Assembly (NCBI GenBank): GCA_046482545.1
Contig: JAWOEX010000021.1
Location: forward strand, 160,001-224,000
Length of the DNA: 64,000 bases
From: Candidatus Thorarchaeota archaeon
Lineage (GTDB): Archaea; Asgardarchaeota; Thorarchaeia; Thorarchaeales; Thorarchaeaceae
Direction of reading: 5' to 3'
This document shows, piece after piece, positions 9,181 to 19,028 of this stretch. The position numbers and the translations under genes are program-made. Numbering within the stretch: the stretch's first letter is position 1; every line of letters starts with the position of its first letter. The notes under the pieces are model-generated. The model did not search any database and had not been told where the DNA came from. It was given only the letters and a program-made list of their open reading frames with translations.

Positions 9181-11097
9181 GTGACTGAGATGAAGGGCAA
9201 GAGCTCAAACCCATGGGAATCAGCACTTGATACAGTTATTGAAATTATCACCAGAGTTACCGGTTTACCGGCTAGTGAAGTGAGAAGATCGATAGAGATA
9301 CCTCCTAATCCAAAAATGGGTGATTTGGCTTCTACGGTCGCGTTTGTTCTTGCCAAGAAAGAACACAAAAATCCCGCTGAGATAGTCACCGACCTAGGTG
9401 AAAAGATAGAACAAGAAATCGCTCAAGAGTCTTTGATTGAACGAGTTGAGACAACTGGACCGTATGCGAATTTCTTCTTTGATAACAGCAAGTTCGCAGC
9501 ATTAACAATGGAGGAAGTTCAAGAAGCAGACACCCAGTATGGTATGTCCGACAAGTATTTGGGACAGCGAGCCATGATTGAATCTCCAGCTGTGAATCCA
9601 TCCAAGCCCTGGCATATCGGTCACGCTCGCAATGCAGTTCTCGGTGATACGCTTGGCAAAGTGTTGAAGGCAGTAGGATATGATGTAATTCACCTTGATT
9701 ACATCAATGATTTGGGTTTGCAGATAGCGCAGCTCACTTGGAAACTCCAAGAGATGGATGAGATTGAACCGGAAGAGAAGTATGACCATTTCCTAGGCAA
9801 GCTGTATGTGGAAGTTCAGAAAGCGTTTGAAGAGAATGCGGATGTGGAGAGGCAGGTACGGGATATCTCTAAACAGCTAGAAGATAGAGACTCAGAAGCA
9901 TCAAACAATAGTCTGCAAATCGTTCTCCGCTGTACAAAGGCACAAAATAAAACAGCATACAGACTTGGTATTTACAAAGATTACAAGATTCTTGAGAGTA
10001 CCATCGCCCACAGTGGTTTGTTAGATACCGCCAAGGAAATGATGCTGAAAAGCGAGAGTATCATGAAATTGGAGGACGGGGATAAAGCAGGGTGTATTGT
10101 TGCCAAACTCGACACCATTGAAGAGTTCGCAGATATGAAGGATCCATACAAGGTTCTTTTCCGTTCTGATGGCACACGAACATATACGGGTGCGGATGTA
10201 GCTTTCCAGATGTGGAAATTTGGTATTGTTGATGATCCATTCAAGTATGTAACATTGGAAGAACAACCAAATGGGGAGTGTGTATACAGAACATCTTTCG
10301 AAGGCGAAGATAAGGAAATCGGAGATGTGGACTTGGTGTTCAATGTAATTGGGTCCGCACAATCTCATCCCCAGCGGCTCATATACACCATTCTACACCT
10401 CCTCGGCTATGAAAAGGAAGCCAGGAATTCCCATCATGTTGCCTATGAGTTCGTAGGATTGGAAGGTGCTGATTTCTCTGGACGTAAGGGTACATGGATA
10501 GGGTATACTTGTGACGATATCCTTGACAAGACAACAAGTCTTGCACTAGAAGAGGTTGAGAAACGTAACCCTGATGAAACCGATGACTTCAAGCAGGAAG
10601 TTGCTGCACAGGTGGGAACTGGTGCTGTAAGGTACCTCTTGTTGAAAGCTTCCCCCGACAGGAGAATAACTTTTCGCTACGAAGACGCCTTGGACTTCAA
10701 TGGCGATGCGGCACCCTATCTACAGTATTCCCATGCACGGGCCAAGAGAATTCTTGAGAAAGCAAAGCAGGTTAGCACAAATGAAGTGGACTACAGCGGG
10801 CTTACATCTCCTCATGAATTGGCTTTGGTTAAGAAAATCGCCAAATTACCTGACGTGGTGCTCAGCGTAGTAGACGGTATGAAGAAGGAGGTGTGGGGAA
10901 CTACCTTTCAGACCAATATGATTGCGACCTATGCCTATGAGTTGGCCAATAGGTTCAGTAAATTCTATGATACGTGTCCGGTTCTCCAAGCGCCTGCAAA
11001 GACCAAAAGTGCGCGACTTATGCTGGTTGCCGCTTTCAAGATAACCATGGCTAATACGCTCAGGCTACTCGGGATACCTGTAATCGACAAAATGTAG
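9181..11097 (+). CDS. argS: Arginyl-tRNA synthetase
   Basis: 'NPSKPWHIGHARN' HIGH motif, 'RSDGTRTY', 'FSGRKG', 'PYLQYSHARA', C-terminal DALR-like domain. Confidence 0.95.
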   Translation: MTEMKGKSSNPWESALDTVIEIITRVTGLPASEVRRSIEIPPNPKMGDLASTVAFVLAKKEHKNPAEIVTDLGEKIEQEIAQESLIERVETTGPYANFFFDNSKFAALTMEEVQEADTQYGMSDKYLGQRAMIESPAVNPSKPWHIGHARNAVLGDTLGKVLKAVGYDVIHLDYINDLGLQIAQLTWKLQEMDEIEPEEKYDHFLGKLYVEVQKAFEENADVERQVRDISKQLEDRDSEASNNSLQIVLRCTKAQNKTAYRLGIYKDYKILESTIAHSGLLDTAKEMMLKSESIMKLEDGDKAGCIVAKLDTIEEFADMKDPYKVLFRSDGTRTYTGADVAFQMWKFGIVDDPFKYVTLEEQPNGECVYRTSFEGEDKEIGDVDLVFNVIGSAQSHPQRLIYTILHLLGYEKEARNSHHVAYEFVGLEGADFSGRKGTWIGYTCDDILDKTTSLALEEVEKRNPDETDDFKQEVAAQVGTGAVRYLLLKASPDRRITFRYEDALDFNGDAAPYLQYSHARAKRILEKAKQVSTNEVDYSGLTSPHELALVKKIAKLPDVVLSVVDGMKKEVWGTTFQTNMIATYAYELANRFSKFYDTCPVLQAPAKTKSARLMLVAAFKITMANTLRLLGIPVIDKM

Positions 11098-12447
11098 TCA
11101 ACCAGAAGTGATTCGCACGTTATCTATGACAATTGATGGCGAGACCACAGACATTGTAGTTCTCACATCCTCGCCAACGTTACTTACCCGTGAAAGCAAA
11201 TCGCGCATGTTAATTCCAATAAGGGTGTTCTTGACGGGGTGTTTAATCTCGCCCTGCTCCACATAGAAGCCTTCCATAATCATCGCGCTGAGCTCTCCCG
11301 TAGTCATGTTAGGTCGATCTGCAGTATTCCGGCACACAATAGCTCGATCCATTTCTGAAATAAAATCCTTTAGTGAGTGTCTATCAGGCTCAATTATGAA
11401 ATTGGTTGTTGAAATTGATGGCGTTCCTGAGTAAGAGCTCCTAGAAGCGTTTGCAGTATTCTCTACACCCTCCCTACTGGCAGTATACGAATTGTGAAGG
11501 TGACTTTTCAACACACCATCAGATAAAATAACGGTCTTTCGGGATGGTACGCCTTCAGCATCAAATGGGCGACTGCTTATGCCCCTCGGGATTGTCGCAT
11601 CATCAACGATGGAAATCTTTTCGGATGCGATTTGGTTTCCAATATCGTCACTTATGTAGGAACGCCCATCCTGTACTTCTTCCGCGTTCACAGCTCCACC
11701 AAAACCATATCCTATAACCCGTCCAACGGCCAGCGGTGTGAAAATAACAGGCATGTACCCTTCCTCAACCGTCTTTCCTCCCAATCCATCCAAGGCTGAC
11801 TTCCCGGCTGAGGAACCAACCCACTCGGGATTTATGTCATCTAGCGACCGGGATATTTGGTACTCATAGCTGGAATTCTGACCATTCTCAGACCTAACGG
11901 TGGGAGAACTGAACAGAAATGCAGCAGTAGATTCCTCAAAACCAGAGATGCCCAAGGAGTTCACGATTGCCCTCGAGAGAGAAGTTGCTGTAAAAGATGC
12001 CTCAACCGCTGTTCTAAACGGCTCTGTTGCCTCCAGAGAAGCATCAACAGCACGAATCAGATAATCAGCAGCTTCGTCTGGCATCAGCTCCTTGATGGAT
12101 GCATCGAAAACACCTTGGATAGTTGGGTAATCCTTGTCAAGGGCAGGCAGGGTCTCAAAGTCTGAATCGGGTAGTGATGCATGGGCAAGTGCAACAGATT
12201 CTTCGGCTATCTCACGGATATCAGCAGTGTCCAGATTTGTAACATAGGCGAATCCAACCCTCTTTCCAATTACTGATCTGATACCACAACCCATATCGCA
12301 ATCGTGGCTTGCTGCTTTAACAGAATTGTTCTCTACTTCAATCGAAACAGATTTAGAAGATGCCGTGTAGGCTTCGGCTTGATCAGCACCAAGCTTCTCA
12401 GCCAAGCTAACTGTGTCTTCAGCAATACGCACTAAATCTTCCTTCAG
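11098..12447 (-). CDS. tldE: TldE/PmbA family protein
   Basis: 'PFDAEGVP', 'NTANASR', 'EGFYVEQGEI'; no HEXXXH; directly downstream of tldD; probable CTG start after GGAGG (ORF open to 12534). Confidence 0.85.
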   Translation of the reverse strand: MKEDLVRIAEDTVSLAEKLGADQAEAYTASSKSVSIEVENNSVKAASHDCDMGCGIRSVIGKRVGFAYVTNLDTADIREIAEESVALAHASLPDSDFETLPALDKDYPTIQGVFDASIKELMPDEAADYLIRAVDASLEATEPFRTAVEASFTATSLSRAIVNSLGISGFEESTAAFLFSSPTVRSENGQNSSYEYQISRSLDDINPEWVGSSAGKSALDGLGGKTVEEGYMPVIFTPLAVGRVIGYGFGGAVNAEEVQDGRSYISDDIGNQIASEKISIVDDATIPRGISSRPFDAEGVPSRKTVILSDGVLKSHLHNSYTASREGVENTANASRSSYSGTPSISTTNFIIEPDRHSLKDFISEMDRAIVCRNTADRPNMTTGELSAMIMEGFYVEQGEIKHPVKNTLIGINMRDLLSRVSNVGEDVRTTMSVVSPSIVIDNVRITSG

Positions 12448-12449
12448 CT

Positions 12450-13835
12450 TTACATCCCTCCCACGGGTACTTTCCTTATTCGAGCATGTGGACCACCACT
12501 CATATCTGGCACCTTCTGCCCCGACTTCCCGCATGTCCCAGAATCCATTCTGAAATCATCACCAATAGCATCTATCTTGGGCAGAATATCGAGAATCTGT
12601 CCAGCGATGGATACATCGCGGACCATATCGCCAATTTCGCCATTTGTTATCTCGAATCCATGACTTGCCTGAAACATGAATTGTCCTTTAGCCGGGCTGG
12701 TGTATCCGTAATTGAAGCTGCACAGAAGAAGTCCTGTATCTGTATCCTCAACCATTTCATCAACGTTCCAATCTCCAGACTCCATGAAAGTATTGCTCAT
12801 TCGTGGCATCGGCGAGTACATGAACGACTGAGCCCGTGCAGCCCCATTTGGTGTCTTATCAAGTCGGGATGCAGTCTCCAAACTGTGGAGAAGCTCAGTC
12901 AGAAAACCGTCTTTGACAAGCGAGCGGCGGGTCGCTTTTGTCCCCTCCCAATCATAATCAAACGAGCCACGCATACCTGGCAATGTAGGATCATCAACTA
13001 TGTTTAGATTCTCAGGACCAACACGGTCACCTAATTTACCTTCCAATACTGTAGTATGCGCTGGCCAATTGTCAGCCTCACAAGCATGCCCAAAGGCTTC
13101 ATGAATCATGACCCCATTGAGAATAGGATCAAGAATGACATCATACACACCACCCTGAACAGCCGTCGATCTCAACATTTCCACGGCGAGCTCGGCGGTT
13201 TTGGTCCCGATGGTTTGAGGATATTCGTTCTCCAATTCCTCAAAGCCGCCACGACCACCATACGACTTGAAAGCGGTCCGCCGATCACCGTTCTCTTTTG
13301 CGGTCACAGAGGATATAACCCGAGGGAGGCTATTACCGAACGTAACACTGGTACCAAATGAATTTGCAACATGTAGGACACAATTGAAGTCACCATATAC
13401 TGCTCGTGAATTCACGATACGTTCATCATAATCATGAGCTTGTTTATCGATCCGTCTAGCAAGATCCACCTTTTCCGCGATAGGAGTTTCCCGGATATCT
13501 TTGGTGACTTTCATTATACACCTGTCTTGGTAGGTTGGACCATCAAGCTCAAACTTCTCAGATGCACGTTCTTCGATTGCTAGGGCCAGTTCAGCGACAC
13601 TTTTGCCACGCTCGCGCATAGTATTCGCCGTCATTCTGTTTTCCTGACCAAAAGCCCAAGCACCGTTCTTGAATGCCCTAATGCCAGCTCCACGGTTTCG
13701 TGATGTTGCAGATTTCTTTGTTACCCCATTGCTTATTTCAATAGTAGTTAGATGTGAGTCTTCTACTCTCACATCGGCAAAATCGGCTCCCACCTCGAGA
13801 GCAGCCTCAATAGCTTCGCGGGCCAAGTGCTCCAT
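12450..13835 (-). CDS. tldD: TldD family metalloprotease
   Basis: 'IHEAFGHACEAD', 'YDWEG', 'PRMSNT', 'GTCGKSGQKVP'. Confidence 0.9.
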   Translation of the reverse strand: MEHLAREAIEAALEVGADFADVRVEDSHLTTIEISNGVTKKSATSRNRGAGIRAFKNGAWAFGQENRMTANTMRERGKSVAELALAIEERASEKFELDGPTYQDRCIMKVTKDIRETPIAEKVDLARRIDKQAHDYDERIVNSRAVYGDFNCVLHVANSFGTSVTFGNSLPRVISSVTAKENGDRRTAFKSYGGRGGFEELENEYPQTIGTKTAELAVEMLRSTAVQGGVYDVILDPILNGVMIHEAFGHACEADNWPAHTTVLEGKLGDRVGPENLNIVDDPTLPGMRGSFDYDWEGTKATRRSLVKDGFLTELLHSLETASRLDKTPNGAARAQSFMYSPMPRMSNTFMESGDWNVDEMVEDTDTGLLLCSFNYGYTSPAKGQFMFQASHGFEITNGEIGDMVRDVSIAGQILDILPKIDAIGDDFRMDSGTCGKSGQKVPDMSGGPHARIRKVPVGGM

Positions 13836-13943: not shown

Positions 13944-15539
13944 GTGCCACATGACCATGGAGGCCAGTTATTGAATCAAGAGACACAACCGCCTAGTTGC
14001 GAGAATTGTAGTACTGCAGAAGCCTCTCATATGTGTAAGGATTGTGGAGCGGCCATCTGTGCTGACTGCATTGAGACTGATAGCACAGAATACATTGTAT
14101 GTAGTGAATGCCATCATACAGTCAGTAGCGAGGATTCTGAGGAACAGCCAACTGAATGCCCAGAATGTGACTCTGATAATCTGAGCAAGGGGAGACGAAT
14201 GATTGAACGTTGCCCTCACTGTCACTCCACCCGACTTGTGCTCATTGAGAAACGGAGAGGAGAATTATCCAGGGAAATACGCAAATCAGTCATGACGCTT
14301 CAGTATGGTCACACCAAGCTCCGCGAGTTTGGTAGTAAATTGGACAAAGCCAAGAGAGATCTCGTATCGCTTCGAATGGCAAATTTTCTTCATTACAAGT
14401 GGCTTGAAAGTAAAATCGAACAGATTCACGAGGAAATGCCAGCCATAAAGAGAAGGATTGGAAACAAGGCAGAACTTGTTGCAAAGCAAATAGCAGCAGA
14501 GACCAAAGGACTGATGGTTTCAGAAAGCTGGAGTCCATCCCAGTTTCCCTTTATCGAAGGAGTGAGCAACAGGATTAGGGAGTTGGGAAACGGCTACAAA
14601 CACAGCGTAGATGAAGCATTGGACAAGGCAACAAGCATCTTGAAAGAAGTAAATACACAAATAGATGGTCTCAACTACTACAGAAAAAGATTCAGTAGCT
14701 TCTATGAGAACGCAGATCTTTCGGTCAAGGAATTGCCTGTATGTGCACTTCCCGAGATTAAGCTGGCTGGAAGTGACTTTCTGAAAAATGACAAAGCATG
14801 TGGCACTCTGTACATGACCAACAAACGCTTGGTATTCATCGCAGAAACTGGACATATTCGAAAGAGCATGGAAGTCATTTTCGATTTTCCCCTTGTCTAT
14901 CACACAGGATTCTCGGAAGAGGGACGACTAAGAAAGAGAATGGTAATGAAACTCAAGCAAGGTGATATCAAATTCGAATGTTCAGAACAAACCGAGAAAG
15001 TTCTTCCTGATTATATCCAGATAGCAAAACAATTCGATAGGTATGTACAAACCGACTTGGAACGGGTGCGCAAACTGGAACAACAGAAAACCAATTCTGG
15101 TGAAGTCAGATTAAAAATTGAAAGACTGGTCTACCAGCTGCTCTCCGGGAGGAGAGGTGTACAGCGCAAAGCAGAATTGAAAGATGTAACTCCGAGACAG
15201 CCACGGATTTCTTCTGGTTTTAACACAATTCGAAAGAGCTATGAGGATCGCATGAATCAAGACGATAGCGAAATAACCGATTATAGAGTAGAAGACGATT
15301 TCTTTGGCAGACTGCAAGGACAGTATCATGAATCTCGGAATAGCCGTAGAGAGAACAGGTATCAAACTCCCCCCAGTAACTTCAACGAGAAGATAAGGGA
15401 AACCATCAAAATGTTACGCAATGGACAGATAGTTCCTGAGAATTTCATAAGAAGATACAGGAGTCTTATGCGCGAGTCTTACGAGGATAGACACGGTATC
15501 CAGTCAAGAAGCTCAGATAGAGATTCTTTCAATTGGTAA
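13944..15539 (+). CDS. Zn-finger / coiled-coil / GRAM-PH-like / steadiness-box protein (candidate ESCRT-I Vps23/37-like subunit)
   Basis: Six CxxC pairs at the N-terminus; heptad-rich region; 'GTLYMTNKRLVF' GRAM/GLUE-like motif; C-terminal 'KIRETIKMLRNGQIVPENFIRRYRSLMRESY'; adjacent to ESCRT genes. Confidence 0.6.
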   Translation: MPHDHGGQLLNQETQPPSCENCSTAEASHMCKDCGAAICADCIETDSTEYIVCSECHHTVSSEDSEEQPTECPECDSDNLSKGRRMIERCPHCHSTRLVLIEKRRGELSREIRKSVMTLQYGHTKLREFGSKLDKAKRDLVSLRMANFLHYKWLESKIEQIHEEMPAIKRRIGNKAELVAKQIAAETKGLMVSESWSPSQFPFIEGVSNRIRELGNGYKHSVDEALDKATSILKEVNTQIDGLNYYRKRFSSFYENADLSVKELPVCALPEIKLAGSDFLKNDKACGTLYMTNKRLVFIAETGHIRKSMEVIFDFPLVYHTGFSEEGRLRKRMVMKLKQGDIKFECSEQTEKVLPDYIQIAKQFDRYVQTDLERVRKLEQQKTNSGEVRLKIERLVYQLLSGRRGVQRKAELKDVTPRQPRISSGFNTIRKSYEDRMNQDDSEITDYRVEDDFFGRLQGQYHESRNSRRENRYQTPPSNFNEKIRETIKMLRNGQIVPENFIRRYRSLMRESYEDRHGIQSRSSDRDSFNW

Positions 15540-15540
15540 A

Positions 15541-16167
15541 TCATATACCGAGCTCGTTCTCTAGACTTTGAATAGCTCGCTCCAGCTTATCGATTTCGGT
15601 TACCTCTCTGGTAGCAGTCCTTGTCTCCTCCATTCCTGCTGCACGATCTATTTCTTCGAACGCAGCTGTTAATTCATCCGAGCTTTCAGAACCGTCCACT
15701 GAATATCCGAGAGCATCCTCAGAAATCTGGGTTTCAATCTCGTATTCCTCGATACGTCTGGAAATCTCGTCGGTATGTTCTATGACCTCCGATACATCAG
15801 ATTCTTCACCAAGAATTTCAAGAACCTTCGATACGTCAGCCAGAGCATGATTTGCCTTTGCGTTGGTCTGTGCTCTAGTTAGATGAGCGAGTAGACGAAG
15901 CATTTGAAGGCGTGACTTCTCTACCGAAAGAACATATTTTCGAAATCGAACCATTTCTTTTGTATATGTTCGATACGCTTGTGTCCTCCCTTCTTTACGT
16001 GCCGTGATAGCTCTAGATTTGGTTTTTCGTTCCTCTATTTCTAGTTTATTCCGTTGACGCTCAAGTTGCTTGGCCATCACCCTAAGATCGCTTTTCACTT
16101 CAGCGATATTCGGCTTGTGTCGTCCCCAAGATAGCGCCTTCCTCACGGAATCGAGAACTCTAACCAT
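15541..16167 (-). CDS. ESCRT-III Snf7-family protein, Vps2/24/46 (CHMP1-3) class
   Basis: Basic N-terminal helical hairpin 'LRVMAKQLERQRNKLEIEERKTKSRAITARKEG', acidic C half, MIM1-like tail 'DKLERAIQSLE'; ATG 16167 with GTGAT RBS. Confidence 0.85.
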   Translation of the reverse strand: MVRVLDSVRKALSWGRHKPNIAEVKSDLRVMAKQLERQRNKLEIEERKTKSRAITARKEGRTQAYRTYTKEMVRFRKYVLSVEKSRLQMLRLLAHLTRAQTNAKANHALADVSKVLEILGEESDVSEVIEHTDEISRRIEEYEIETQISEDALGYSVDGSESSDELTAAFEEIDRAAGMEETRTATREVTEIDKLERAIQSLENELGI

Positions 16168-16318
16168 GGCTATCACAGGAGTTTCCATTATACCATTTTT
16201 AACACCATGTAACACGCACCTTGTCAAGAATAGAAATCGAAAGCCCATTCTCCCATTGGATTCCTAAGGTCATACATGGTTTAAAGAATGGTCTGGACCA
16301 TTCTCCAGTTGAGTTCCT

Positions 16319-17545
16319 ATGCCAAATGATGCAAGTACCATAGATGAAGGCCTCAAGCAGTTACTTGAGACCGCGGTGGATCTAGATTCCAAGGGTATGC
16401 TCAAGGAAGCAAGTGAATACTACCTGAGCGGCAGCAAGGTCCTCCTCAAACTTGCAAAAGGATCTTCTCTTCCTAGCATTCGTAAACATTACTATGAACG
16501 GGCTCAGGAATGTGTACAAAGGGTTCGAGAAATCTCAGGTATCAATGAGAATTCTAGAAACCAAGATGCAAGAAGCATATCTCATCCCCCAAGAAATACC
16601 AAGGGTGAAGACATAACAAAACCATCGCGTAGATCTGCAGAAGAGGGTGACGAAGAAACGGGAAAGCTACGGGAGATGATAAGGAGAACAATTACAACCA
16701 GAAAGCCCAATGTGGCAATGTCAGATGTTGCAGGGCTTGATGATGTGAAGAATACCATTCATGATGCTGTAGTCACACCAATAAAGCATCCCGAGCTGTT
16801 TAAGGGAAGAGCAAGACAACCATGGAAGGGAATCCTGCTCTATGGGCCTGCAGGATGTGGGAAAACTCTAATAGCTAAAGCAGTGGCAACAGAAGCTGAG
16901 GCCACATTCTTCAACGTATCTGCCGGGAACATGGTAAGCAAGTGGTTGGGCGAATCAGAACGCCTCGTGATGACTCTCTTTGAAATGGCAAGAGAAACTC
17001 AACCGTCGGTCATCTTCCTCGATGAGCTCGATTCCATAGGTGTGTCTCGGAGTGCAAGTGACTTGGGCGGCGAAAGAAGACTCAAGACGCAATTGCTCAC
17101 CGAATTGCAGGGTCTTTCCAACGACATCAATGAAAGAGTGACGCTGATAGGAGCCACAAATCTTCCGTGGGAGATTGATTTTGCCCTTCTATCAAGATTT
17201 GAGAAAAGAATTCATGTTCCGCTTCCTGATAAATCCACAAGAGAACGGATATTCGAAATCCACATGGAAGATATCGATATCACACCTGATGTCAACTATT
17301 CAGAACTAGCAGAATTAGCGAAAGGTTTCAGCGGACGAGATATTAGCGTGGCATGCAGAGAAGCCGCGATGGAACCAATTAGAGAATTGAAGGAACAAGG
17401 CAAGCTCAAAAAGGAGGAGACCATAACTGAAGTTCGTTCTGTAAACAGACGGGACTTCATTGAAGCCCTTCAAACAATAAAGCCCACCTCAAAACAAGAA
17501 CAGATCGAAAAATACTCTTCATGGGCGGAGGACTATAGCCGTTGA
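16319..17545 (+). CDS. vps4: Vps4 AAA+ ATPase with N-terminal MIT domain
   Basis: MIT 'AVDLDSKG...EASEYY...YYERAQE'; 'PWKGILLYGPAGCGKT', 'SKWLGESERLV', 'FLDELD', 'GATNLPWEID', 'RFEKRIHVPLP', 'GFSGRDI...EAAMEPIR'. Confidence 0.92.
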   Translation: MPNDASTIDEGLKQLLETAVDLDSKGMLKEASEYYLSGSKVLLKLAKGSSLPSIRKHYYERAQECVQRVREISGINENSRNQDARSISHPPRNTKGEDITKPSRRSAEEGDEETGKLREMIRRTITTRKPNVAMSDVAGLDDVKNTIHDAVVTPIKHPELFKGRARQPWKGILLYGPAGCGKTLIAKAVATEAEATFFNVSAGNMVSKWLGESERLVMTLFEMARETQPSVIFLDELDSIGVSRSASDLGGERRLKTQLLTELQGLSNDINERVTLIGATNLPWEIDFALLSRFEKRIHVPLPDKSTRERIFEIHMEDIDITPDVNYSELAELAKGFSGRDISVACREAAMEPIRELKEQGKLKKEETITEVRSVNRRDFIEALQTIKPTSKQEQIEKYSSWAEDYSR

Positions 17546-18240
17546 CTGTCAGAGAGAAGGCAAGGAAGAAAGAAGAAAAGGAAATTGAGGATAATACAAC
17601 CGTAGAAAAGGAACATGAAACTGCCACCTCATCACCGCTTTCAGATAATGAAACACAGATAAAACAAGTAGGAGCCCAAGAGTCTATAGATCGTGAGAAA
17701 GCTGAAACCAAAGTTGGTCAAAAGAGTCAGTCTTTGGAAACATTGATACCCGATTGGGGAACTTCCGAAAAAGCTGCCTGGATGTATTTACTACCTACAA
17801 CAGAAGAGGGGGTTAAAAGGTGGGCAAAGGACTGGACCGATTTCCTGATAGAGTGGGCAGACTATAACAATCGATATGTTTTCTCATTTTCAACGTTTAT
17901 CAGAGAGCCTCCCTTCTGTGAAATGCGCAACAAAAGGAAAGCTTTCTCCGAGATAGCTGAATCATTAATTCAACAAGGATTGGCTGAGTGGAGAGATGAT
18001 AGAAAGAGAAACCTTCAGCTGATGTGGAAGTCAAAGAAAGAGGTAGCAGATGATTTGTATGCGTGGGCTCTGAAGACGGGAACCATGCATCTTGACCTCA
18101 GGAGCATGGTGATAGAAGATAGCTTCGACTTTGGTGGATTGCCGCAAGAAGATATCAAAGAGATTTTTGATATAATTGTCCTGAGCGGAAGAGCTGAATG
18201 GGTAGATAAAGAGCGTGCCATGATTAAATTGAATACCTAA
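17542..18240 (+). CDS. vps25: ESCRT-II Vps25-like protein
   Basis: 'WTDFLIEWA', 'GLAEWRDDRKRNLQLMWKSKKEVADDLYAWALKTG' parallels the eukaryotic Vps25 'G.LEW.DK....LIMWR....W...IY.W...G'; 4-nt overlap with vps4. Confidence 0.85.
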   Translation: MTVREKARKKEEKEIEDNTTVEKEHETATSSPLSDNETQIKQVGAQESIDREKAETKVGQKSQSLETLIPDWGTSEKAAWMYLLPTTEEGVKRWAKDWTDFLIEWADYNNRYVFSFSTFIREPPFCEMRNKRKAFSEIAESLIQQGLAEWRDDRKRNLQLMWKSKKEVADDLYAWALKTGTMHLDLRSMVIEDSFDFGGLPQEDIKEIFDIIVLSGRAEWVDKERAMIKLNT

Positions 18241-19028
18241 CTTGCTTCCTGTGCGCTATCGGATTTTTGGTCGGAGCGTAACCCTGGGAAGTAGTATTTT
18301 CCACCACTGCTGAATCTAATATCTGCCACGGCAATTCCGGCCTCGACTAGACTGCTGAGAACTTGGCGTGCATGGTCTTCTGACCATCGAAGATTCATCA
18401 TGACTTGTTCAATGGTCACATGGCCATTTGCTGCAGCTAGATTAATCACCTCAGCTTGGTCTCCCCGCAGTTCTAGTGGGCGTAGTTCCACCACTTTGAC
18501 TCCACCTCCAAGCGTTCGAATTCCTGGAAGAAGACCATGTTCTGCAACACGGTTTACAGCTTCGATAACGTCGTTGTAGCTTACTGAATTCAGCTCTGGA
18601 ATCCTACGAACAACACGTACAATCAGTTCTGCAAGACCCATTAGACCCTTCGATGCATTTGCGGTAGCTACATCAAGAATAGCCAGGCCAATTTGATCAT
18701 AGTATTCCTCCTCGGTCATACCTCGAGGGGGGCCATTCGAACCGTCCGCGAAGAATTGTAAAAGTTCAGCAGCATCAGGAAATCTGTCTAAGATACGCTC
18801 TTCATATATGAAATCCTGTAAATCTTGGCCTCGACGGCGCATACGATCAATATTGGACTTAACATCAAGCATCAGAGCTTCTGATTCGCGTCGATAGGAT
18901 TTCACCCCAACTACTCCCATGTCATACATCTTCTTTAGCTGGTCCAAGGTAGCTATTGAAGCGTATAATTCTGATTCTACATGGAAATCCATCGGCAAGC
19001 CATCACTATCCGGAGTGTCTAGATGCAT
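18237..19028 (-). CDS. Vps28 N-terminal-like domain fused to a Vps22/36 (EAP30) tandem winged helix
   Basis: N-terminal 'SELYASIATLDQLKKMYDMGVVGVKSYRRESEALM...LQDFIYEERILDRFPDAAELL'; C-terminal 'YYDQIGLAILDV...GLMGLAEL...VSYNDVIEAV...PLELRGDQAEVINLA...GHVT...LRWSEDHARQVLSSLVEAGIAVAD...YYFPGL'. Confidence 0.8.
   Translation of the reverse strand: MHLDTPDSDGLPMDFHVESELYASIATLDQLKKMYDMGVVGVKSYRRESEALMLDVKSNIDRMRRRGQDLQDFIYEERILDRFPDAAELLQFFADGSNGPPRGMTEEEYYDQIGLAILDVATANASKGLMGLAELIVRVVRRIPELNSVSYNDVIEAVNRVAEHGLLPGIRTLGGGVKVVELRPLELRGDQAEVINLAAANGHVTIEQVMMNLRWSEDHARQVLSSLVEAGIAVADIRFSSGGKYYFPGLRSDQKSDSAQEAS

Follow-up and report, generated by a model that had tools for sequence, protein, structure and literature searches.

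The gene and its ESCRT neighbourhood

The stretch of Candidatus Thorarchaeota DNA analysed here (64,000 nt, termed the window) contains a gene of the Znr_CC_PH_SB family, followed by genes for an ESCRT-III protein, Vps4, a Vps25-like ESCRT-II subunit and a Vps22/EAP30 protein (Table 1). The product called for this gene in public collections is 522 aa in length, compared with the 531 aa encoded by the complete ORF. The true start is probably TTG 13971, which would give the 522-aa product, and not GTG 13944; this codon is preferred on the basis of the gene callers, the N-termini of homologues and a GGAGG sequence at 13959–13963, 7 nt upstream.

Table 1. Coordinates in the window of the genes discussed and of the predicted parts of the Znr_CC_PH_SB protein
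Feature	Position	Strand	Basis or remark
Znr_CC_PH_SB gene	13944..15539	+	ORF list; 531 aa from GTG 13944
Zinc module, aa 19–94	13998..14225	+	Six CxxC pairs; B-box/RING-like part and zinc ribbon
Helical region, aa 101–256	14244..14711	+	AF2, three long helices
GRAM/GLUE-type PH domain, aa 262–362	14727..15029	+	Basic K307, K331 and R332 conserved
Pair of conserved helices following the PH domain, aa 364–401	15033..15146	+	AF2 models, alignment conservation
Disordered linker, aa 405–471	15156..15356	+	pLDDT <50; length and sequence variable in alignment
Steadiness-box hairpin, aa 478–527, Vps23/TSG101 type	15375..15524	+	Family profile, Pfam, hhalign
ESCRT-III (Snf7 family)	15541..16248	-	Pfam Snf7, E 2.3e-9; tail-to-tail with the Znr_CC_PH_SB gene
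Vps4 (MIT + AAA + Vps4_C)	16319..17545	+	Pfam; synteny
Vps25-like ESCRT-II subunit	17542..18240	+	Pfam PF05871, E 3.2e-10
Vps22/EAP30 with N-terminal Vps28N-like hairpin	18237..19028	-	Pfam EAP30, E 1.6e-13
IFT52-type GIFT protein, 389 aa	30861..32030	+	Pfam IFT52_GIFT, E 1.2e-13

More than 165 homologues were found, with a mean column identity of 59%, which rules out a chance ORF. In its own genome (a 3.05-Mb assembly, 98.9% complete) the gene is present as a single copy, and there are two Snf7 genes. Sixty-six Thorarchaeota loci were gathered with very specific peptide patterns, while the wider distribution was taken from profile searches. A broad profile, built from 74 family representatives at 50% identity, has matches at E<=1e-6 in 234 of the 251 Asgard genomes that were sampled, representing 60 of 62 genera. 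Full-length matches across these genomes measure 500–780 aa; the weaker matches in some families (~E 1e-7 to 1e-10) may be partial. Thorarchaeota members are ~520 aa long, and those of families taken as Lokiarchaeia, from their length, are 620–780 aa, mostly through a longer linker.

Comparison of the 66 Thorarchaeota loci, judged as far as each contig reaches, reveals a nine-gene order of ArgRS, PmbA, TldD, the Znr_CC_PH_SB gene, ESCRT-III, Vps4, Vps25, SB-Vps22 (Vps22 with the N-terminal hairpin) and AspRS. The ESCRT-III gene adjoins the Znr_CC_PH_SB gene in all but one of the loci (65/66). In other Asgard families, a convergent ESCRT-III gene lies directly downstream in 18 of 22 loci; of the four loci without this arrangement, two are truncated at the end of a contig. 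The stop codons of the two genes are 1 nt apart in the window (15539–15541). Linkage conserved in this way is unusual for convergent genes, which cannot be co-transcribed. Upstream, the ArgRS, PmbA and TldD genes (9181–13835) keep their order and orientation in ~60 of the 66 loci and, downstream, AspRS is found in 51 of the 66, so that the whole 11-kb block forms a fixed syntenic unit. The Vps25-like ORF starts within the end of the Vps4 gene, with an overlap of 4 nt (17542–17545), which suggests translational coupling and fits a published comment that vps25 and vps4 run in the same direction.

Pfam searches gave no UEV match in the Znr_CC_PH_SB protein, and no match to UEV, Vps28 or ubiquitin in its own genome. 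The controls for UEV and Vps28 were both silent, so that their absence is a weak result alone and rests mainly on the literature, in which Thorarchaeota are reported to lack both ubiquitin and UEV-Vps23; the genome search fits these reports.

Zinc module, long helices and steadiness box

The initial annotation recognized zinc ribbons at aa ~19–95, and the family alignment bears this out. Twelve cysteines, forming six CxxC pairs at aa 19–93, are invariant or nearly so (58–61/60 N-terminally complete sequences in the phylum-wide alignment), and are enough for three Zn sites. The AF2 model, calculated on a 42-sequence alignment (mean pLDDT 78), has a zinc-rich beta region at aa 15–100. Pfam zf-B_box is matched by 23 of 74 members, an ANCHR-like BBOX by 12 of 74 and DZR by 27 of 42 Thorarchaeota members, and zinc-ribbon matches are also seen. 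NZF/zf-RanBP is absent amongst the 25 top Pfam families listed for family members.

The comparison made initially with the Zn fingers of yeast Vps36 does not hold. The module is N-terminal and lies outside the PH domain, which runs uninterrupted from aa 262 to 362, and it is thus unlike the NZF fingers of yeast Vps36. With neither zf-RanBP amongst the matches listed nor a genomic ubiquitin match, an NZF or ubiquitin-binding reading of the fingers is unlikely. In a broader form, the module could act in ubiquitin-like modification or recognition, as a RING/B-box E3-type protein or as a ubiquitin receptor like the NZF of yeast Vps36. Weak similarity by profile to RNF4 RING chains and to FYVE/B-box chains is in keeping with such a role, as is the 'RING' in schematics of related Asgard ESCRT-I proteins, where the legend to Supplementary Figure 8 gives RING, CC and PH amongst the domains drawn for ESCRT-I-like proteins (PMC9192718). 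The lack of a ubiquitin or UEV match in the genome (UEV control silent), the reported absence of ubiquitin from Thorarchaeota and the absence of zf-RanBP amongst the Pfam matches listed argue against it, and the family is kept in ubiquitin-containing as well as ubiquitin-free lineages; an E3-type or receptor function is considered highly improbable.

Downstream of the zinc module, the AF2 model contains helices at aa 101–147, 152–186 and 198–249, with pLDDT mostly 88–97 and dips near 150 and 250. The long coiled coil proposed at first corresponds to three long helices (pLDDT ~90), which may pack either as a coiled coil or as an antiparallel bundle. No specific structural match to the helical region was found when the full model was compared by Foldseek and VIA. 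These comparisons did return DH-PH entries, in which rows extending over the helices as well show an rmsd of 7–25 Å, so that only the PH part superposes; BAR entries are absent amongst the matches listed. A BAR-PH or DH-PH arrangement of the helices and PH domain was therefore dropped.

The linker between the post-PH helices and the C-terminal hairpin is disordered, as had been predicted (pLDDT <50 at aa 405–471 in the AF2 model). Within it is a semi-conserved motif, approximately F-R-x-x-L-E-R-x-I-G-R (aa 447–465, ~15280–15340; alignment columns ~488–505), which stands ~25 aa before the steadiness box (SB) and might serve as a short linear motif for interaction.

The C-terminal hairpin consists of helices at aa 478–492 and 498–527 and contains 'KIRETIKML...RESY' (nt ~15390–15482). 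Its initial reading as a steadiness box is supported by the family profile. When the profile of 74 representatives was compared with the PDB, chains of the yeast Vps23 ESCRT-I core ranked highest (2p22_A first at E 4.8e-5, then 2f66_A at 5.4e-5 and 2caz_A at 2.5e-4), and the human TSG101 headpiece was also found (6vme_B, E 8.4e-4); all of these Vps23/TSG101 matches align to the C-terminal hairpin. Pfam Vps23_core is matched by 18 of 74 members (best E 7.2e-6). A profile of Thorarchaeota sequences only gives weak matches to Vps23 (E 0.2–1.3) and the window protein alone reaches only E 0.25 against Vps23_core, so that the support comes from the family profile. A generic SHOCT hairpin was rejected, as Vps23_core and Mod_r are present amongst the Pfam matches listed and SHOCT is not. 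A 222-aa metagenomic relative, P0208, consists of a bPH_3-type PH domain and a Vps23_core hairpin (Pfam E 2.7e-4) alone, and represents a minimal PH-SB form lacking the zinc and helical parts.

The Vps22/EAP30 protein encoded nearby begins with a Vps28N-like hairpin (aa 16–76), which gives a weak Pfam match to VPS28 at aa 19–75; such SB-Vps22 fusions constitute cog.002769 (PMC10936438). Local hhalign comparison of the steadiness box with the first 105 aa of the Vps22 family gave a probability of 86% (E 4.8e-6, 61 columns), against 1–2% for three other helical segments of the Znr_CC_PH_SB protein used as controls. Both hairpins thus look like homologous steadiness boxes that could plausibly pair as in a headpiece, and the N-terminal hairpin of Vps22 is proposed as the partner of the steadiness box.

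A PH domain of GRAM/GLUE type

In the middle of the protein, the PH-like stretch originally noticed near 14800 corresponds to a confident PH fold of seven strands and a C-terminal helix in the AF2 model, inside which lies 'GTLYMTNKRLVF' (aa 287–298, from nt 14802). Folded alone (aa 255–405, 65 sequences), this part has a pLDDT of 86. A profile of the PH domain found no PH chain amongst PDB sequences, and the fold therefore had to be recognized by structure comparison.

Foldseek searches of the PDB with the PH-only model placed the GLUE domain of human EAP45 first (2hth_B, E 1.4e-4, TM 0.58), followed by the MTMR2 PH-GRAM domain (~6e-4) and, at rank 7, the PH domain of yeast Vps36 (2cay_A, 1.1e-3); the PH-like domain of Lam6 and mouse GLUE (2dx5_A) were also matched. 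VIA alignment of the same model against 48,161 representative chains ranked MTMR2 PH-GRAM first, with GLUE ~1 Z behind, and this order was unchanged with the full model (MTMR2 12.0, Lam6 11.2, GLUE 10.4). Amongst the family representatives, Pfam bPH_3 is matched by 33 of 74 (best E 4.8e-7), GRAM by 13 of 74 (best E 4.7e-5) and Vps36_ESCRT-II weakly by 7 of 74 (best E 4.3e-5). With the window protein by itself, matches to Vps36 (E 0.037), bPH_3 and GRAM all fall below the Pfam cut-off. The description of a GRAM(GLUE)-like PH domain in the initial annotation therefore stands as to fold type, with GLUE at the top by Foldseek, MTMR2 by VIA and bPH_3 by Pfam; the domain is of GRAM/GLUE type, and these comparisons do not single out GLUE from GRAM or bPH_3.

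Small PH proteins that stand alone, labelled by Pfam as bPH_3, GRAM or Vps36-like, are also retrieved by the family profile. Neighbours in the ESM Atlas comprise bacterial clusters of bPH_3 and GRAM type and a single cluster of eukaryotic Vps36 (score 0.83); with all scores <0.9, these are leads only. Conserved across the family are K307, K331 and R332, together with G287, T292, G303 and G327, and these residues mark a candidate ligand surface.

It was suggested at the outset that eukaryotic GLUE had an archaeal source. In its strongest form, the PH domain found here would be the direct ancestor of the Vps36 GLUE domain, having moved from an ESCRT-I-like subunit onto a Vps22 paralogue at eukaryogenesis. 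The first rank of EAP45 GLUE and the seventh of yeast Vps36 in the Foldseek results are consistent with such descent, as are the weak Vps36_ESCRT-II matches, the presence of a eukaryotic Vps36 cluster amongst the nearest ESM Atlas clusters (again a lead only) and the near-universal occurrence in Asgard archaea of a family that shares its pathway with Vps36. Against this, the Pfam matches to bPH_3 and GRAM are stronger and extend to more members, the GRAM domains of MTMR2 and Lam6 score at or above GLUE by VIA, and no PH chain of the PDB is reached by sequence with the PH profile. In addition, the nearest sequence relatives of the domain are stand-alone prokaryotic bPH/GRAM proteins, and GLUE could derive from any of those. 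Direct ancestry is regarded as unlikely. A wider scenario, in which GLUE descends directly from the PH domain of this family, membrane recognition shifted from ESCRT-I to ESCRT-II by domain shuffling at eukaryogenesis and Thorarchaeota use a wholly ubiquitin-independent, lipid-triggered pathway through a two-hairpin headpiece with SB-Vps22, is held to be similarly unlikely, and an archaeal source of GLUE is at present a matter of speculation.

Relation to known ESCRT proteins and a putative role

The protein is a Thorarchaeota member of the Znr_CC_PH_SB family (asCOG cog.011556), which was named by Makarova et al. (2024, mBio; PMC10936438). In their description, its members combine three zinc ribbons with a coiled coil, a PH domain and a steadiness box; they considered the family to be specific to Asgard archaea, probably ancestral and likely to belong to ESCRT-I, and argued for membrane association from the PH domain of Vps36. 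The window protein has the cysteines for three zinc sites, the helical region, the PH domain and the C-terminal steadiness box; it shares architecture, ESCRT neighbourhood and phylum with the published family, and differs in nothing essential. The family is also the 'SB protein' of Hatano et al. (2022; PMC9192718), amongst whose yeast two-hybrid constructs ThorAB25_08990 is listed as 'SB'. Short motifs of ThorAB25_08990 map to the Thorarchaeota AB_25 locus, at the position of the syntenic orthologue, which is 51% identical to the window protein and lies in the same nine-gene order; ThorAB25_09030 'Vps22' is within that locus too, and the AB_25 orthologue of the neighbouring ESCRT-III has been labelled ESCRT3A (PMC9192718). 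Since the family had already appeared in papers of 2022 and 2024, its recognition from the window is a correct rediscovery and not a new find, and both the architecture and the analogy with the Vps36 PH domain were already known. Full-text search of the literature library used gave no more recent experimental study of this family.

The protein resembles Vps23/TSG101 in its C-terminal steadiness-box hairpin, in the helical region upstream of it and in its upstream position in the ESCRT pathway. Unlike Vps23/TSG101, it has neither a UEV domain nor a PTAP-type region, its N-terminus (aa 1–100) being the zinc module, and in the monomer model the PH domain and a 70-aa disordered linker separate the long helices from the steadiness box. 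In contrast with Vps36/EAP45, there are no winged-helix domains (PF04157 is unmatched and none is seen in the AF2 model), the PH domain carries no NZF insertion of the fungal Vps36 type, and its sequence affinity to GLUE is no better than that to GRAM or bPH_3. PH-GRAM domains (MTMR2, Lam6/GRAMD1) and bPH_3 occur alone or with phosphatase or StART modules, whereas the domain described here is combined with ESCRT modules. The initial interpretation of the protein as a Vps23-Vps36 hybrid is partly supported.

The role that we favour, with somewhat more than even confidence, is that of an ESCRT-I-like adaptor, which would act upstream in an ESCRT pathway independent of ubiquitin. The PH domain would hold the protein on the membrane via the conserved basic patch of K307, K331 and R332, while the zinc module and helices might bind cargo or partners, or mediate self-assembly. 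The flexible linker would allow the C-terminal hairpin to pair with the homologous Vps28N-like hairpin of Vps22, and this pairing could amount to a minimal ESCRT-I headpiece wired straight to ESCRT-II, which would then nucleate ESCRT-III for Vps4-driven remodelling.

Several lines of evidence are consistent with this adaptor role: the AF2 domains, the PH fold matches, the Vps23/TSG101 matches of the steadiness box and the invariant cysteines; the hhalign similarity of the steadiness box to the Vps22 N-terminus, set against its controls; the fixed linkage to ESCRT-III, Vps4, Vps25 and SB-Vps22; and the lack of UEV and ubiquitin Pfam matches in the genome (UEV control silent), which fits the published absence. 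Against it, archaeal membranes are not known to contain PI3P, and the long helices do not run on into the steadiness box, in contrast with those of Vps23. In addition, the window protein alone has only the marginal Vps23_core match given above. Published observations also point to an adaptor. The free-standing SB protein of Loki- and Thorarchaeota may interact with Vps28, and Vps22 interacts with the Loki SB protein (PMC9192718); moreover, Makarova et al. placed the family in ESCRT-I and expected its PH domain to be membrane-associated (PMC10936438).

The conserved neighbour of the gene is ESCRT-III and not Vps22, which would also fit a direct link to ESCRT-III. The main functional alternative, to which we assign a minor but real likelihood, is recruitment in the manner of CdvA, by which the PH-bound protein would recruit the adjacent ESCRT-III directly, without ESCRT-II; this is compatible with an adaptor. 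Thermoproteota CdvA is likewise a membrane-binding adaptor encoded beside ESCRT-III and Vps4, with a reported SB-like helical hairpin, and HHpred similarity between the steadiness box and the CdvA hairpin was noted by Makarova et al. (PMC10936438). Direct recruitment would also agree with the convergent ESCRT-III gene being the most conserved neighbour across the phylum, with weak Pfam CdvA matches in 3 of 74 members, and with two-hybrid hints that, in Loki- and Thorarchaeota, ESCRT-I/II may contact ESCRT-III and bypass Vps25 (PMC9192718). On the other hand, the PRC barrel and the E3B peptide of CdvA are not seen here, and CdvA lacks a PH domain and a zinc module. Recruitment of this kind would have the hairpin or linker contact ESCRT-III, and not Vps22; against it, the hairpin matches best to the Vps23 and TSG101 headpieces and is similar by profile to the N-terminal hairpin of Vps22.

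Asgard ESCRT proteins bear on the origin of eukaryotic membrane trafficking, and in Thor- and Lokiarchaeia, lineages that lack UEV-Vps23, the family is the best candidate for membrane recognition. To the published description, the present analysis adds an independent check of the steadiness box and PH domain, the assignment of the latter to the GRAM/GLUE type, without singling out GLUE, and the finding that the zinc module is not NZF-like. It also adds the profile similarity of the hairpins in this protein and Vps22, and the phylum-wide tail-to-tail pairing with ESCRT-III. The remaining interest lies in the functions of the PH and zinc domains.

Elsewhere in the window, the ORF encoding a GIFT domain and a coiled coil (Table 1) was considered as a further ESCRT-I-like or headpiece subunit; this is unsupported, the protein having no Vps23_core match. 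Its coiled coil gives a spectrin-like match and a weak match to CdvA (E 0.023).
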